The notes: generated by a model not told the origin, from the letters alone. DNA of 64,000 nucleotides from a candidate division WWE3 bacterium RIFCSPHIGHO2_01_FULL_40_23 (GCA_001772615.1 MEUZ01000003.1:109698-173697); one strand, 5' to 3'; counted from the stretch's first letter, positions 40,276 to 57,773 are shown. Program-made: numbers and translations.

Positions 40276-40878
40276 TTAGAGCCCAAGCTTCACGGCATCT
40301 TCCTGCATTGCCGAAAGCGTAACCTCCATAAACTTATCCAAAGAAATTCCAAGCTTCTCGCTGCACTGCTCTATCTGCTCCCTTGAAACGGTTCTTGCAA
40401 ACTCCTTTTGCTTCCATTTCTTCTTAACGGAATCCACATCAACCGAAACAAGTTTCTTATCCGGCTTGACCAATGCACACGCGACAATGAACCCCGTTAG
40501 CTCATCAACACATTCCAAAGACCACTCAAGAAGGGTTTCGGGCTCTCTTAAATGAGTCACTTTAGTATTATGGGATTTAAAAGCTTCTACAATATGGGAA
40601 TGGACATCATAAACTTTAAGCCAGTCAAGAAGCATGATCGTATGCTTTTCCCAGTTATCCTTAGTTATTTCATAATCCGCATCATGCAAAAGTCCCACAA
40701 CTCCCCAGTCCTCCTCCGACAGATTATTAACGGAGCTTTCATTTCTTCCCTCTTTTTTAAAATATCTATACAATGCCCTCATTGCCACCGAAACTGCATA
40801 GCAATGCCTTCTTAAATTTACATTAAGCATATTTTTGTGAAGAATTTCCGTGGCAATATTATGAGTCAGCTTTTCCAT
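40276..40878 (-). CDS. HD-domain phosphohydrolase.
   Basis: The HD motif lies in VGLLHDADYEI, and an upstream His is present. Confidence 0.6.
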   Translation of the reverse strand: MEKLTHNIATEILHKNMLNVNLRRHCYAVSVAMRALYRYFKKEGRNESSVNNLSEEDWGVVGLLHDADYEITKDNWEKHTIMLLDWLKVYDVHSHIVEAFKSHNTKVTHLREPETLLEWSLECVDELTGFIVACALVKPDKKLVSVDVDSVKKKWKQKEFARTVSREQIEQCSEKLGISLDKFMEVTLSAMQEDAVKLGL

Positions 40879-40881
40879 AGC

Positions 40882-42348
40882 TTAATCAAGAGGACCTACA
40901 ATCTCAATGTTTTCTTCAGGTTTAAGAAGCGGAAACATAACGCATTCTCTTATAGACTTCCCGGCAAGGAACGAAAAAAGCCTTTCGGAAACGCCAAACC
41001 CCGTAACGGGAGGCATCCCATATTCAAGAGACCTTACAAAATCATAATCAAACATCTGGGCCTCCGTATCGCCTTTTTCTCTCATTTCCTGCTGGTCTTT
41101 AAATCTTTCCGCCTGATCAATTGGATTATTAAGCTCCGAATACCCATTCCCAACTTCTGATCCACCGATAATAACCTGATACCTCTCAACAAAGTCAGGA
41201 TCATCTGCTTTTCTTTTGGCAAGAGGCGAAACTTCCACAGGATGATCAGTAAGAAAGAGCGGACCTGAAATATTTTTCCTGACCGCCTTCCAAAGATGGT
41301 CTAAAAGCCTACCTTTGGTATCAGATTCCATAAATCTGATCTTCATTTTCTTAAGCTTTTCTTTTAGGTCCTCCGAGGAAGCTTTTTTAATATCAATCCC
41401 CAGCTCCTTTTTCAAAGCATCAGTAAAAGTTAACCTACCCCACTTTTGATTCAAATTTATCTTCTTCCCAAATATTTCAAATTCATAAGTTCCAAAAGTT
41501 TCAAAAGCAACTTTTTTGTACATCTCCTCAACAAGCTTCATGGAATCCTCATAATTTGCAAAAGCCCAGTAAAATTCCACCTGCGTGTAATCCTGGAGGT
41601 GCTCTTTACTAATTCCTTCGTTTCTAAACTGCCTTCCAATCTCAAATGTTTTTTCAAAACCTCCCGTCATTAACCTTTTCTGCCACAACTCTCCCATTGA
41701 AATTCTTAAATACACATCAATATCCAAAGCATTATGATGGGTAACAAAGGGATTAGCGTCGGCTCCTCCCGCGGTATTTTCTAAAACGGGCGTTTCAACC
41801 TCCAAAAAACCTTTAGAGAGTAGGAAACTTCTGATGGAATTCCAAAACTTTGATTTTTGTCTGAAAAGATCTCTTAACTTAGTATTTAAATTAAAATCAA
41901 CATATCTTTGTCTGTATCTTTCCTCAACATCTTTAAGCCCAAACCATTCGGAAGGCATAGGCCTAAAAGACTTGGACAACAGCTTATAATCCCCAACCTC
42001 AACCGTGATTTCTCCAGCTTTAGTAGTAAAGAGCTTGCCTTTGGCAAACAAAAAATCCCCTGCGTCTAAAAGATCAAGAAACTCATAGCTTTTACCACCT
42101 AATGCATCCTCCTTAAAAAGAAGCTGTATTTTGGAGGATTCATCATAAACATCCGAAAAAGTGATCTTTCCATGCTTTCTGAAACCGTGGAGCCTTCCGC
42201 ATACTTCAACTATCTCCCCCATCGGCTTTAAAAGAATTTCGGCAATAAAAGTCTTATCAATGGAAAATGAAAGATATGGATTAACCCCAAGTTCCAGTAT
42301 CTTTTTGAATTTTTCAATACGAGTGGAAATAATGTCCCTAGAACTCAT
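40882..42348 (-). CDS. lysS: Lysyl-tRNA synthetase, class II.
   Basis: The N-terminal OB anticodon-binding domain is followed by class II motifs (FRNEGIS..., GGSEVGNGYSELNNP, EYGMPPVTGFGVSERL). Confidence 0.9.
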   Translation of the reverse strand: MSSRDIISTRIEKFKKILELGVNPYLSFSIDKTFIAEILLKPMGEIVEVCGRLHGFRKHGKITFSDVYDESSKIQLLFKEDALGGKSYEFLDLLDAGDFLFAKGKLFTTKAGEITVEVGDYKLLSKSFRPMPSEWFGLKDVEERYRQRYVDFNLNTKLRDLFRQKSKFWNSIRSFLLSKGFLEVETPVLENTAGGADANPFVTHHNALDIDVYLRISMGELWQKRLMTGGFEKTFEIGRQFRNEGISKEHLQDYTQVEFYWAFANYEDSMKLVEEMYKKVAFETFGTYEFEIFGKKINLNQKWGRLTFTDALKKELGIDIKKASSEDLKEKLKKMKIRFMESDTKGRLLDHLWKAVRKNISGPLFLTDHPVEVSPLAKRKADDPDFVERYQVIIGGSEVGNGYSELNNPIDQAERFKDQQEMREKGDTEAQMFDYDFVRSLEYGMPPVTGFGVSERLFSFLAGKSIRECVMFPLLKPEENIEIVGPLD

Positions 42349-43702
42349 ACTTTAAGAGTTTATCAGAAAAGTAGCCGTACATATATTCGGATGAGTATTT
42401 GTCAAAAAAACTTTGGACTTCCGCTTCCGATGCCTCGGCATAAAAATGCATGACAACATTTGCAAGCTGATCAGCGCATGAGTACATCTTGCTCGCATTT
42501 GGAAGGATTCTATCCCCATCAAGCTTAATTGCTCCGTTTTCAAGGCAGTAGTTATAAAAAACGCGGTAGCCCACAAGATAATTCTCTACCTGCGGCGCGG
42601 TTTTACGTATGAAGTAATCCGAAAAAGTTCTCATCAACATCACATATAAAATAGCCTCAAGATCTTTCTGGGACAAAACGCCTTTTATTACCTGAAATCC
42701 GCAGGCTTTAATGCCAACAATGGACGAATGAAGCTCCATAACAGGGTTAGACATACTCTTTAAGCGCTTCCAAGCTCCTTCATACTGAAAAATCGCTTCC
42801 GTAATCTCATGAGCAAGAACGAGTCTTACAGCGTTAGCCATTATAAAATCGTCACTGAAACTTTTCTGAACACCTAATTCAATAAAGTCCCTGAATAGCG
42901 GAAGGAGCATTTGACCGTCTCTTCTTTCAATGTTATTTGTGTAAACGACAATTTTAATACCACACTTTTTAATCGTATTAATATCTTCGGGATAATTTAC
43001 GGCTCTTGCGGGAAGTGAAGCATTCCTTCCCCCAATACAAATAACATTATCAACTCGTACCTTTATCATATCCGCTGAAACATTCTGCCTTGCCTTTGAT
43101 CCAAAAGGAGGAAGCATGTTTCTTATTACATCCACATAATTTAAAGGATTATATGAACCGTTCGTGCCCGTATATGTAAAATTAAAATTATAAGCTTTCT
43201 TTAAACTAAAAAGTCTGTCCGCATATGACCCAAGAGGCCCTGCCATAAGATGTAAAAAGCTTTTATTATCAACTGCTATCCATGCTTTTTCAAGAGTTGA
43301 GTAATCCCCATGACAAAACTCTTTAGAAGCTATTTCTAGATATTTTTTGAAACTTTTTTCAGAGGCAAGTTTTGAAGCCTTTAAAAATAGATCAGATATT
43401 TCTTTTAGAACATCTCTATATTCCTCATGATAATAAACAGCACAAAGCTTCCCACTTGAGTCTCTTTTAACAACCGTGTAAGGGTCTAAAATCTTAGGTT
43501 CTTTTTTAGATGCTTCTTCAATTTCTTTACGCGTTGCATCTGTAGGATAAAAACCCCCACCCTTAAAATCCCCATCCGCCTGCTTTGCAAATATTTCACC
43601 AACTTTTTTTCCAGCTTCTTTTAATATTTCTACAATTTTTAAATCTGTCTTTGAAAATCTCTTTTTCTCAATAGGATATTCAAGGTAATACTTCTCATTC
43701 AT
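42338..43702 (-). CDS. Hypothetical protein of 454 aa, possibly a metallohydrolase-like enzyme.
   Basis: This is a long conserved-looking ORF that contains LAHEITEAIFQYEG. No firm family assignment can be made from the sequence alone. Confidence 0.45.
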   Translation of the reverse strand: MNEKYYLEYPIEKKRFSKTDLKIVEILKEAGKKVGEIFAKQADGDFKGGGFYPTDATRKEIEEASKKEPKILDPYTVVKRDSSGKLCAVYYHEEYRDVLKEISDLFLKASKLASEKSFKKYLEIASKEFCHGDYSTLEKAWIAVDNKSFLHLMAGPLGSYADRLFSLKKAYNFNFTYTGTNGSYNPLNYVDVIRNMLPPFGSKARQNVSADMIKVRVDNVICIGGRNASLPARAVNYPEDINTIKKCGIKIVVYTNNIERRDGQMLLPLFRDFIELGVQKSFSDDFIMANAVRLVLAHEITEAIFQYEGAWKRLKSMSNPVMELHSSIVGIKACGFQVIKGVLSQKDLEAILYVMLMRTFSDYFIRKTAPQVENYLVGYRVFYNYCLENGAIKLDGDRILPNASKMYSCADQLANVVMHFYAEASEAEVQSFFDKYSSEYMYGYFSDKLLKYEF

Positions 43703-44168
43703 AAAACACTTCCAAAATCTTATATTTAAGTTTAACTACTGGAGTTGTGACTTCTATGACGTCTCCAACTTTTGACCCCAAAAGAGCCTGTCCGACTGGA
43801 GACTCGTTGGAAATTAAATTTTTTATAGGATTTGCCTCTACACTTCCGACAATTTTAAACTTGTCAACCTCTCCGTCACATTCAACTTTAACCATTGCCC
43901 CGATAGAAATAAAGTCAGCGGCTATCTTTGCTTTTTTCTCATCTATTATCTTGTAATCTGAAAGTATACTTTCAAGCTCCGAAATCCTTCTTTCAAGAAG
44001 GGTTTGCTTTTCAAGCTCTAGATCATATTGAATATTATCTTCATAACCGCCAGATTCAATGGCGGCTTTAATTCTTTCGGCGGCTTTTTGCCTTCCGTTT
44101 GCTATGAGGTCGCTATATTCCTCCTGTAATTTGCTTAATCCCTGCTTTGTAAGATATGTGTTTCCCAT
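43695..44168 (-). CDS. GreA/GreB-family paralog of 157 aa. Its coiled-coil tip is divergent: the acidic residue corresponding to D41 is replaced by Gly.
   Basis: GGYEDNIQYDLELEKQ aligns to GDISENAEYESARERQ of the neighbouring canonical GreA. The C-terminal FKBP-like domain is conserved (VGQALLGSKVGDVIEV). Confidence 0.7.
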   Translation of the reverse strand: MGNTYLTKQGLSKLQEEYSDLIANGRQKAAERIKAAIESGGYEDNIQYDLELEKQTLLERRISELESILSDYKIIDEKKAKIAADFISIGAMVKVECDGEVDKFKIVGSVEANPIKNLISNESPVGQALLGSKVGDVIEVTTPVVKLKYKILEVFYE

Positions 44169-44211
44169 AACACCCTTCTTCGGGCACTTAATTTAAGTCA
44201 ATCTGGCAGGT

Positions 44212-44676
44212 TTACTTGATGCTAAGGATTGTATACGTAAGCTTTCCAACGGGAGCTTCCACTTCAACTTTATCTCCAATTCTTTTTCCCATTAAAGCTA
44301 GTCCAAGGGGAGACTCATGTGAAATTTTCCTCTCCATTGGGTTTGCCTCAACTGCCCCGACTATATAAAACTCTTCTTCCCCGCCTTCTACATGAACTTT
44401 AACAACACACCCGACATCCACAACATCACTGTTTTTATTTTCTTTTATGGTTTCAACGTTTTTTAATATCTCCTCAAGCTCTGTAATTCTACCTTCAATA
44501 AACGCTTGTCTTTCACGCGCGGATTCATACTCGGCATTTTCGGAAATATCGCCCATTTCTCTTGCGGACTTTATTCTTTCCGCGATCTTTGAGCGCTCTA
44601 CATCCACCAGATTCTTATATTCTTTTTTAATTTCTTCAAAACCTTCTTTTGTAAGGTATACTTTACTCTTTTTCAT
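44212..44676 (-). CDS. greA: Transcription elongation factor GreA.
   Basis: The canonical tip is MGDISENAEYESARERQ, and the C-terminal domain reads PLGLALMGKRIGDKVEVEAP. Confidence 0.85.
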   Translation of the reverse strand: MKKSKVYLTKEGFEEIKKEYKNLVDVERSKIAERIKSAREMGDISENAEYESARERQAFIEGRITELEEILKNVETIKENKNSDVVDVGCVVKVHVEGGEEEFYIVGAVEANPMERKISHESPLGLALMGKRIGDKVEVEAPVGKLTYTILSIK

Positions 44677-44863
44677 AAAAATAAAAAAATCCCCTCAAAC
44701 AAACCGAAGCTTAAAGATTAAGAGGGGGAACTTTTTTTCTTAAATCCTTTGTAACGTGAATGATCGTATCACGCAAAAACCTTAATGTCAAGCTAAGGAA
44801 ACGTTGATTTGACAACAAAAATGGCTCTTTCAATCAATAGTGTGTGTCTGATAAAATTAAAGA

Positions 44864-56385: not shown

Positions 56386-57510
56386 TCAGTTTAAGTCGCC
56401 GCACCAGGCGAGAAATAGTGAATCTGATAAAGGTAAATGACGGATACCGATAGCAAGAGGACGGCCTAAACGTAGATTTTGGAGAGAAATATTCAGAATT
56501 GTTTCTGATTTTCCAGGGGCAGAATTGGTTTTAAGTCCGTTAATCACTTCTGTTAAGGGATACGCTACCAATCCAATGGCAAGGCAAGACCCCTTATAAA
56601 TATTTGCGGGTGGTTTTCCAGCCATAAAGTCTAATTGAATCACAATTTTTGTTTTTTCATTGCCTAGATCAGTAAGTGTCGCAATACTCACACCATTTCC
56701 TTCTCCGCTGTTTTGAGGGGTTAAGGGTATATAATATGTATCGTTTGTAAAAGTTTTCAAATTTTCAGCAACATATGGTGTTTGGGATATGTCAGGCGTT
56801 TCAGTTGAAGTAGTTGAAGTATTTGATCTCCACTGAAAAGTTCTCAATATTGTATCTGTTTCTTTAAAGAAATCAGCATAAAGACTGACGGGTGTCCAGC
56901 CCTCAACCTCTGCTTTTATTTGGTGTAAATAATTTATACAAATCTGTTTTTTGGTAATGTCAAGCAAGTCGCATCTGATCCTTTCGACGACAGGCTTGGA
57001 GAGTACAAAAGTGAGATCCTTATTTTTATCGGTAATAAGATCTATTGACGTGACTCTTTGACTTCCCACCACACTTGTGCGGCTTATTACATTGTTGTCC
57101 ATGTTGATCACCAACATGTCTTTTGATACTGGACCTTGATCCATGGAGGTTTCATCCACCCACGTGTCAGTTTTTGTATTATAGATTGATCGGGAAAGTT
57201 GACCAGAAAATTGTATATCTTCGATACCTTTAACGAGGGTAATTGTTGCAACGCTCAAATATTTTATGTCTGCCTCAGTAAATAATTTAGGGGTTATGAG
57301 AAATTTTTCTAGACATACTCCGTTAAATTTGTTATCGCAATCAGTTTTCGTAATAGAGAAACTGTTTGGCACCTGAAAAGAATAACCGTACGTATCGCTT
57401 CTATAAGTGTCGACAATTTGATTTTTACCCTGATTCAGTCCGGTCAAATAAATAATTCTAGCTATACATAACAATGCAAAAGCGCTGATAATTAAAATTA
57501 CTTTTTTCAT
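56386..57510 (-). CDS. Secreted protein of unknown function (about 375 aa) with an N-terminal signal peptide.
   Basis: The start is taken at MKKVILIISAFALLCIA. The track ORF runs further into the tRNA gene, and that extension was rejected. Confidence 0.55.
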   Translation of the reverse strand: MKKVILIISAFALLCIARIIYLTGLNQGKNQIVDTYRSDTYGYSFQVPNSFSITKTDCDNKFNGVCLEKFLITPKLFTEADIKYLSVATITLVKGIEDIQFSGQLSRSIYNTKTDTWVDETSMDQGPVSKDMLVINMDNNVISRTSVVGSQRVTSIDLITDKNKDLTFVLSKPVVERIRCDLLDITKKQICINYLHQIKAEVEGWTPVSLYADFFKETDTILRTFQWRSNTSTTSTETPDISQTPYVAENLKTFTNDTYYIPLTPQNSGEGNGVSIATLTDLGNEKTKIVIQLDFMAGKPPANIYKGSCLAIGLVAYPLTEVINGLKTNSAPGKSETILNISLQNLRLGRPLAIGIRHLPLSDSLFLAWCGDLN

Positions 57511-57596
57511 ATTTCTAAGTTCGCTTATTAGCGGTTTGCTTCTTTGGTGCACTGGTGGGGGGAACAGCAACCCTACCTCTTTTGTGATTTCCAAAA

Positions 57597-57673
57597 TGGT
57601 GACCCTGGGGGGATTCGAACCCCCGGTCTTCGCCCTGAGAAGGCGACGTCCTAAACCGCTAGACGACAGGGCC
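57597..57673 (-). tRNA. tRNA-Glu (anticodon CUC).
   Basis: The sequence is GGCCCTGTCGTCTAGCGGTTTAGGACGTCGCCTTCTCAGGGCGAAGACCGGGGGTTCGAATCCCCCCAGGGTCACCA. It folds into a cloverleaf with a 7-bp acceptor stem, a TTCGAAT T-loop and an encoded CCA end. Confidence 0.85.
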
Positions 57674-57773
57674 ACAAAACCCACTTCTGCTTCATGGGAT
57701 CCCCACTTTCGTGGGGATGACGGTGCGACCGTCATTTTTGCATTATACCATCAGGAATAATATACTTTAGAAA

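Follow-up and report, generated by a model that had tools for sequence, protein, structure and literature searches.

Why would a bacterium encode two Gre factors side by side? The question is raised by a 64,000-nt stretch of DNA (the window, to which all coordinates refer) from candidate division WWE3 bacterium RIFCSPHIGHO2_01_FULL_40_23 (GCA_001772615.1 MEUZ01000003.1:109698-173697). Here, a gene for a canonical GreA of 154 aa (greA1, 44212..44676) is followed by a gene for a second Gre-family factor of 157 aa (greA2, 43695..44168), in a string of genes that all lie on the minus strand. Secondary-channel factors differ in what they do to RNA polymerase (RNAP): cleavage is stimulated by GreA and GreB, Gfh1 and Rv3788 are inhibitors, DksA is a regulator, and small changes at the tip can reprogramme the enzyme. 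WWE3 (Katanobacteria; this genome is from Rifle groundwater) belongs to the candidate phyla radiation (CPR, Patescibacteria), a group with reduced genomes, where redundancy is unlikely to persist. Our answer is that greA2 is a functional, diverged secondary-channel factor which is not redundant with greA1, a reading to which we give a probability of about 0.8.

The rebuilt tip of greA2

Both proteins contain the two Gre domains: PF03449 with E-values of 1.5e-26 in greA1 and 3.9e-15 in greA2 (56.2 bits, above the cutoff), and PF01272 with 1.6e-23 and 2.3e-22 (79.2 bits, also above the cutoff). Their mutual identity is 45% (BLASTP 5e-44). An earlier note on this DNA had described two adjoining Gre genes with a 43-nt gap, which the open reading frames (ORFs), the Pfam domains and the spacer (44169..44211) bear out. 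Its labels "upstream" and "downstream" were reversed, however: they fit plus-strand coordinates only, and on the minus strand the canonical copy is transcribed first. When scored with the NCBIfam models, greA1 passes as GreA (NF001263, 182.8 bits, cutoff 145; TIGR01462, 165.2 bits, cutoff 139), whereas greA2 falls under every GreA/GreB cutoff (133.9 and 124.5 bits with the same two models; 86.5 and 71.9 bits with GreB models whose cutoffs are 188 and 171).

Residues are numbered here as in E. coli GreA; the numbering of greA2 itself is identical, and that of greA1 runs two higher (D43, E46). Alignments of the two paralogs with each other and to E. coli GreA (1grj) are gapless across the tip, those to E. 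coli GreA and to GreB also along the coiled coil (residues 6-75 for GreA), and they confirm the tips as first described: greA1 has G-D-I-S-E-N-A-E-Y (codons 44527-44553) with D41 and E44 present, and greA2 has G40 G41 Y42 E43 D44 N45 I46 Q47 Y48 (codons 44025-44051), in which D41 is replaced by Gly. The change at position 44 (Glu to Asp) is conservative and position 43 has become Glu, so two carboxylates remain at 43/44. The earlier note had allowed that an alignment might place the acidic residues elsewhere. This is partly the case, as E43/D44 is conserved and a role in catalysis or metal binding may have been kept, but the D41...E44 pair itself is absent.

A scan of the greA2 columns against greA1 and 70 canonical Gre proteins finds eight that are fixed in greA2 and unlike all the others, seven of them around the tip: 37 (R to I/L), 41 (D to G), 43 (S/A/T to E), 44 (E to D), 51 (A to E), 52 (R/K to L), 54 (E to K) and 119 (K to L). 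The C-terminal domain (CTD) is conserved, with greA2 keeping all the CTD residues that are invariant in 68 Gre proteins including itself (G90, V107, E111, S120, S123, P124, G126 and G135). S123, in an "SP" motif, aligns with S121 of E. coli GreA, and from this alignment we take it to be the equivalent of S127 in MtbGre, whose S127E mutant loses its interaction with RNAP (PMC3132773). Over residues 1-75, greA2 orthologues carry a net charge of -1 to -7 and greA1 orthologues one of -1 to -5. A GreA/GreB-type split of the pair by a basic patch was rejected, as the coiled coils of both paralogs are acidic.

The AlphaFold2 model of greA2 (predicted local distance difference test [pLDDT] score 83.4) has helices at 8-40 and 46-70, a loop at 41-45 and a beta-rich CTD. 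In Foldseek comparisons, its template modelling (TM) score is 0.90 to a GreA model (9a7t_B), 0.86 to GreB (2p4v), 0.84 to GreA (1grj), 0.84 to RNAP-bound Gfh1 (3aoi_X) and 0.45 to free, flipped Gfh1; these values confirm the fold and the coiled-coil length and cannot separate GreA-like from Gfh1-like function. The predicted orientation is GreA-like, though as a single predicted conformer it is uninformative on switching. Because the modelled coiled coil is of canonical length, the greA2 tip should reach the active centre.

Compared with GreA, greA2 has the same two domains, the same length and an identical coiled-coil register; it keeps G40, N45, Y48 and the CTD motif IS-x-x-SP-x-x-x-L-x-G, and its locus is near lysS, as are single greA genes in other bacteria. 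It differs from GreA in having G41 (in 17/17 orthologues), D44 and E43, in the change of R37/A51/R52 to I/E/L, in always occurring alongside a canonical GreA, and in scoring under all curated cutoffs. N45/Y48 have been linked to the binding of backtracked RNA, and D43N is among the MtbGre tip mutants assayed for Mg2+ coordination (PMC3132773). According to the same paper, a Gre factor may be specific to its polymerase. The D41N and D41A mutants of E. coli GreA bind RNAP, do not stimulate cleavage and inhibit elongation at high concentration (PMC3078854). The differences from GreB are the lack of a large basic coiled-coil patch and the replacement of K/R52 by Leu.

Gfh1 inhibits RNAP catalysis, undergoes a pH-dependent domain flip (PMC4598747) and does not stimulate cleavage. 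Like Gfh1 of Thermus/Deinococcus (PDB 2f23, 2eul, 2etn, 3aoh/3aoi), greA2 is a Gre-fold paralog beside a canonical GreA, and the tips of both depart from GDxxEN. The tips themselves are different, with SSDDYDDSGL in Gfh1 (2f23, 2etn) against SGGYEDNIQY in greA2: that of Gfh1 contains four acidic residues, including those at 41 and 44, and has SGL where N45/Y48 would be (PMC4598747; alignment). Gfh1 also belongs to another phylum and is 29-32% identical to greA2, which is the same as GreB and compares with ~33% for E. coli GreA. Our trees (neighbour-joining [NJ] with bootstraps; deep nodes all unresolved, also after dropping the tip columns) do not recover a pairing of greA2 with Gfh1. The entry 4wqt is a chimera of Gfh1 with ~30 altered residues around the tip, which reads GDLRENAGY, and it was deposited as a cleavage-stimulating factor. 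Judging by this entry, the tip region decides the outcome.

M. tuberculosis, too, has a second Gre-like protein, Rv3788, in addition to its essential canonical Gre; Rv3788 does not stimulate cleavage and competes at the secondary channel (PMC3132773, PMC4598747). Both acidic residues are present in it, and its inactivity has been ascribed to missing equivalents of N45/Y48 (PMC3132773), so greA2 is the reverse case. Rv3788 is also only 16% identical to E. coli GreA. Rnk has a shortened coiled coil, whereas that of greA2 is full-length, and greA2 scores 40.1 bits with NF004548 (cutoff 126) and 29.2 bits with NF004396 (cutoff 109). Judged by its tip sequence, its model scores and its place in the tree, greA2 was rejected as a member of Gfh1 or Rnk/Rv3788. 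A further parallel is TFS4/TFS1 of Sulfolobus, where a cleavage factor is duplicated and one copy, with a rebuilt tip, competes for the same channel (PMC5715097); TFS4, however, has an unrelated zinc-ribbon fold and has lost both acidic residues and gained three lysines, while greA2 keeps two acidic residues.

To place the greA2 tip within the family, we surveyed the best 150 of the 50%-identity Gre representatives, as ranked by a profile that leans to E43/D44 by a few bits. D41/E44 occurs in 112 of the 150, and about a quarter have other tips. Many tips without D41 follow the pattern G-x-x-[DE]-[DE]-N (GTPEEN, GSLDDN, GGLEEN, GLLDDN, GGSDDN, GHFEEN, GNIEDN, GAIEDN, GSLEDN and GNLEDN). An acidic residue at 43 is found in 17/32 representatives without D41 and in 0/115 with it (Fisher p 7.5e-14), and the profile's bias cannot account for that zero; 19/32 without D41 have at least two acidic residues within 41-44. 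The non-canonical tips are dispersed in a poorly resolved tree and several have canonical sisters, so D41 has been lost repeatedly. Judging by these sequences, the carboxylate has probably been relocated and not lost, with a two-carboxylate function retained. That function could be either cleavage or inhibition, because Gre catalysis and inhibition by Gfh1/Rv3788 both need tip carboxylates.

Two other groups of Gre-like proteins with unusual tips were seen. One, a large group, has the tip GGTENNAEY (G41, E43, N44) and includes a gene in locus L017 (4001-4468) and many database proteins (P0078-81, P0098, P0208, P0224-P0271); where named, these are from Dehalococcoidia or Chloroflexi. The L017 gene is solitary and immediately precedes lysS-serS; the 8-kb locus contains no tandem canonical GreA. 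In the other group the first helix is shorter and the tip reads HSE[DE][VL][ND][PT]E[YF] (L015 4001-4462; P0082, P0083, P0085, P0106, P0108, P0110, P0117); the recorded Pfam match is a faint one, to the N-terminal Gre domain only. In L015 there is no adjoining Gre gene, and an HD-domain gene is next.

Conservation and age of the gene pair

A search of 5.8 billion clustered proteins gave 17 clusters of greA2 orthologues with 55-71% identity to greA2 (55-100% in the search as a whole), with every ORF at full length; those that are named come from WWE3 or Patescibacteria. Their tips follow GG[YF][ED/L][DE]N..Y. The 17-member alignment shows no variation at G40, G41, N45, Y48, E51 or the CTD motif ISNESPxG; at position 44 it has Asp in 15/17 and Glu in 2/17, and at position 43 an acidic residue in 16/17. 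The greA1 orthologues in the related loci all have GD[IL]SENA[EDG]Y.

Genomic context is available from nine lineages: the window plus L001, L003, L005 and L010-L014, with duplicates merged. Every readable locus has a canonical GreA, greA2, a homologue of the next gene (orf454, discussed below) and then usually lysS, so the paired arrangement, which the earlier note had suggested checking in relatives, recurs wherever context can be read. The arrangement is upheld across lineages whose lysS products are only 42-74% identical. Values of the nonsynonymous rate (dN) are 0.17-0.34 and similar for greA1 and greA2; synonymous sites are saturated in every pair, so comparison with the synonymous rate (dS) is qualitative only, with dN far below dS. 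Together with the intact ORFs, this means that greA2 is under purifying selection and is no pseudogene. The earlier note had considered that this copy might be a pseudogene in relatives, and it is intact in all orthologues.

The greA2 clade is narrow and rare in public data. When a profile was run against 1.84 billion representatives clustered at 50% identity, the clade came out as one cluster at 271 bits, with the next match at 167 bits. A profile scan of genome contigs finds the clade in only 2 GTDB species representatives, a metagenome scan gives 3 loci, and a single-protein scan of genome contigs gave no matches. One further protein, P0002 (source SRC, read run SRR3989344; 159 aa), is made of greA1 in its first 59 residues and greA2 in its last 97, joined at the shared RI[ST]ELE segment. 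Taking SRC to be an assembly made at the protein level, we read P0002 as a chimera of that assembly and rejected a natural fusion; were it real, nature would have produced a tip-swap recombinant.

In the NJ trees, the greA1 clade and the greA2 clade are each monophyletic (0.95-0.99) but their joint grouping is not supported (0.00-0.01). Mean identity of greA2 is 49% to other CPR GreAs and 45% to its neighbour greA1. A recent tandem duplication was therefore rejected: the two clades do not group, and greA2 is equally near other CPR GreAs. Because the clades do not unite, greA2 is an old copy.

The gene order also occurs in two more distant WWE3 lineages. L018 has Gre(GDLKENGMF), Gre(GGVEENPAY), orf455 and lysS, and L020 has Gre(GDLSENGMY), Gre(GDIEENLMY), orf453 and lysS. 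The second copy in L020 has both D41 and E43, so the tandem is older than the loss of D41. Since the deep nodes of the tree are unresolved, orthology of greA2 with these second copies rests on synteny. Two other loci lack the pair: L019 has a single canonical GreA directly before the orf454 homologue, and in L017 greA and lysS are adjacent without either extra gene. The tips of homologues of the L018 second copy (with genomic context for L018 and L020 only) are GDIEEN, GNIEEN, GGVEEN, GDVLEN, GNVLEN and GD[IV]LQN, whereas first copies are always GDxxEN. The copy next to orf454 is the one with the variable tip.

What greA2 may do

The specific role that we favour, at a little under even odds, is to modulate GreA1 or compete with it, while stimulating cleavage in the canonical manner weakly or not at all. 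The sequences and the model show the gene pair, its conservation and synteny, the pattern of tip residues and the Gre fold; binding to RNAP, competition with GreA1 and lost or altered cleavage stimulation are what we infer. The greA2 CTD would dock where GreA1 does, on the beta-prime rim helices by the entrance to the secondary channel, and competition would follow. The coiled coil would bring to the active centre a loop with a flexible Gly-Gly, an aromatic residue and the adjacent E43-D44 in place of D41...E44, and with N45/Y48 retained; nearby, the basic R37/R52 are replaced by Ile/Leu and A51 by Glu. Most likely, this tip would still engage the active-site Mg2+ and the trigger-loop region. 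It would lack GreA's efficient cleavage stimulation and would modulate GreA1 and catalysis, an effect like that of Gfh1/Rv3788 reached via a different tip. The earlier note had proposed a regulatory paralog on the grounds that loss of D41 is a Gfh1-like change. The proposal stands as a reasonable hypothesis, given the conserved non-canonical Gre beside GreA and the D41N/D41A precedent, but the Gfh1 analogy does not: Gfh1 and Rv3788 keep an acidic tip and are without N45/Y48, and greA2 is the converse.

Several points weigh against a modulator, and most of them favour its main rival, in which greA2 is a cleavage factor re-registered from D41/E44 to E43/D44, resembling the DE hairpin of TFIIS, and shares labour with greA1 (e.g., by backtrack depth, metal ions or pH). 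We regard this rival as somewhat less probable than the modulator but a serious contender. The greA2 tip keeps two carboxylates, conserved across the clade, as well as the invariant N45/Y48, which both known inactive homologues lack (Rv3788, PMC3132773; Gfh1), and Gre-like action on backtracked complexes may therefore persist. In the family survey, an acidic 43 occurs only without D41, and most tips without D41 still have at least two acidic residues; this covariation resembles compensation, and the preserved two-carboxylate function could be catalysis. The same chemistry is carried out by TFIIS/TFS with an Asp and a Glu side by side (PMC5715097). The GDIEEN tip of L020, with E43 and D41 together, suggests a plausible path in which E43 was gained and D41 then lost. 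It would not be obviously economical to transcribe an inhibitor constitutively together with its target, and co-transcription fits complementary roles more than antagonistic ones. The activity of the whole clade is, besides, read from sequence and model, and the relation to greA2 of the GNVLEN and GDxLQN proteins is unsettled in the trees. Those same single-carboxylate tips, among the homologues of the L018 second copy, argue against re-registration, as do the lost R37/R52 and gained E51 near the tip. All tested D41 substitutions in E. coli GreA cut or abolished cleavage (PMC3078854), and since neither coiled coil is basic in the manner of GreB (N-terminal domain charge -1 to -7), a GreA/GreB-style division is not evident.

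The remaining two accounts deny greA2 a role of its own at the polymerase. That it is a redundant duplicate in decay, either a relaxed copy or an incipient pseudogene, would agree with the lost D41, the scores below the NCBIfam GreA cutoffs and an orthologue identity slightly under that of greA1 in some pairs. We consider this effectively refuted by the conservation data: every one of the 17 clusters and every locus has an intact ORF, dN is much lower than dS (which is saturated), the tip and CTD motifs do not vary, the arrangement has outlasted divergence of lysS to 42-74% identity, and the separate monophyly of the two clades marks an old copy. Slightly less improbable, though still very unlikely, is that greA2 works away from RNAP, in a chaperone-like role or in partnership with LysS or the orf454 product. 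In its favour, the greA2 stop and the orf454 start overlap by 8 nt, this coupling is conserved, and orf454 has an altered metal site and no assigned function. However, in L019 a single canonical GreA precedes the orf454 homologue, which ties that gene to Gre generally and not to the G41 variant; L017 has the greA-lysS adjacency without either extra gene; and the RNAP-binding CTD residues are the best-conserved part of greA2.

A broader claim would be that the GG-aromatic-E-D-N loop is a recurrent, previously unrecognised Gre active-site architecture with side-by-side carboxylates at 43-44, found here in a two-factor WWE3 operon with autoregulation by a leader terminator. We think it rather unlikely. 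If it is true, the operon would supply both a canonical GreA and an alternative-tip Gre with a distinct catalytic or regulatory output, and the Gre factors could act on the conserved leader terminator, giving autoregulation. To our knowledge, characterised non-cleaving Gre homologues all keep the acidic pair and differ elsewhere. The greA2 clade is the opposite natural experiment (D41 out, an adjacent acidic pair in, N45/Y48 kept) and so bears on whether Gre-assisted hydrolysis strictly needs the D41...E44 geometry or can make do with a TFIIS-like adjacent pair. Our literature search found no paper joining Gre factors with CPR, and greA2 may offer a first view of transcription-elongation control in these bacteria. 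It is a lineage-specific variant of a well-known family and no new type of system, with a functional meaning that we derive from its sequence.

The gene string and other loci in the window

Reading along the minus strand, the string consists of a promoter-like site, a leader, greA1, greA2, orf454, lysS and orf200. The promoter-like site (44763..44791) has TTGACA, a 17-nt spacer and a TG-extended TACGAT; it is the region's top match, with 10/12 consensus positions and the TG present. The layout TTGACA-N17-T(G)nTAnnAT recurs 92-128 nt 5' of greA1 in 7/7 lineages with enough upstream sequence. Consensus match and conservation together make this site a candidate for the operon promoter.

The leader contains a terminator-like hairpin followed by a U-run (44677..44728, minus strand): CCCCCUC...GAGGGG spans 44728-44691, and the U-run (44689-44677) reaches the greA1 start codon. 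The predicted fold has an energy of -14.3 kcal/mol, with a z-score that is not significant in an 80-nt context; the case for the element is its positional conservation. An element of the form C4-5...G4-5, A0-2, T6-7, ending 6-12 nt 5' of the greA1 start, is found in the window, L001, L003, L005, L011, L012 and L013; it is absent from the leaders of L010, L018, L019 and L020. The E. coli greA leader terminator (GraL), as outlined in PMC2836576, is an analogue for attenuation, and by this analogy the greA1 hairpin may be a transcription attenuator.

The spacer between greA1 and greA2 carries a purine-rich Shine-Dalgarno-like GAAGGGTG located 3 nt before the greA2 ATG. The corresponding spacers in relatives are 10-52 nt, and no terminator-like site was found on the minus strand between the two genes. 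From the short spacer, the overlaps between genes and the lack of a terminator between the pair, we propose that greA1 and greA2 are co-transcribed from one promoter.

The gene orf454 (42338..43702, minus strand), whose start overlaps the greA2 stop, encodes a protein with the fold of dipeptidyl peptidase III (DPP III, M49) and an altered metal motif. It has no Pfam or NCBIfam match, though there are distant matches to proteins bearing PF03571. Its AlphaFold2 model (pLDDT 91.5) has a TM score of 0.82 to Caldithrix DPP III (6eom), and weaker fold matches include Fe2+/pterin-dependent PolE proteins. In place of the zinc motif HExxH it has HE[IV]T[ED], and in place of EEAKAD, ELHSS. A homologue lies 3' of the second Gre gene in all related tandem loci, and after the single GreA in L019. 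The orf454 protein is encoded on contigs of up to 435 kb.

Next comes lysS (40882..42348, minus strand), which overlaps the orf454 stop by 11 nt and encodes a class II lysyl-tRNA synthetase (tRNA-synt_2, E 7.7e-72; tRNA_anti-codon, E 1.2e-12); it is syntenic in most related loci. The last gene of the string is orf200 (40276..40878, minus strand), for a conserved 200-aa protein that is 64-78% identical in L001-L004, L006, L007, L009, L011 and L013. It lies directly 3' of lysS, or 3' of orf454 in L013, and its match to DUF2750 is sub-threshold only.

Two other loci in the window deserve mention. A tRNA gene (57600-57673, minus strand; Rfam 62 bits) lies inside the listed ORF 56386..57735, so this ORF is probably over-extended at its N-terminus. 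Eight overlapping genes for membrane proteins form a run between 7855 and 19641 (minus strand): four PMT/PMT_2-like glycosyltransferases, two polysaccharide-biosynthesis proteins (flippase-type), one LPG_synthase_TM and one DUF2079. This run has a low G+C content (0.32-0.36) and an unusually high AT skew (0.20-0.25).

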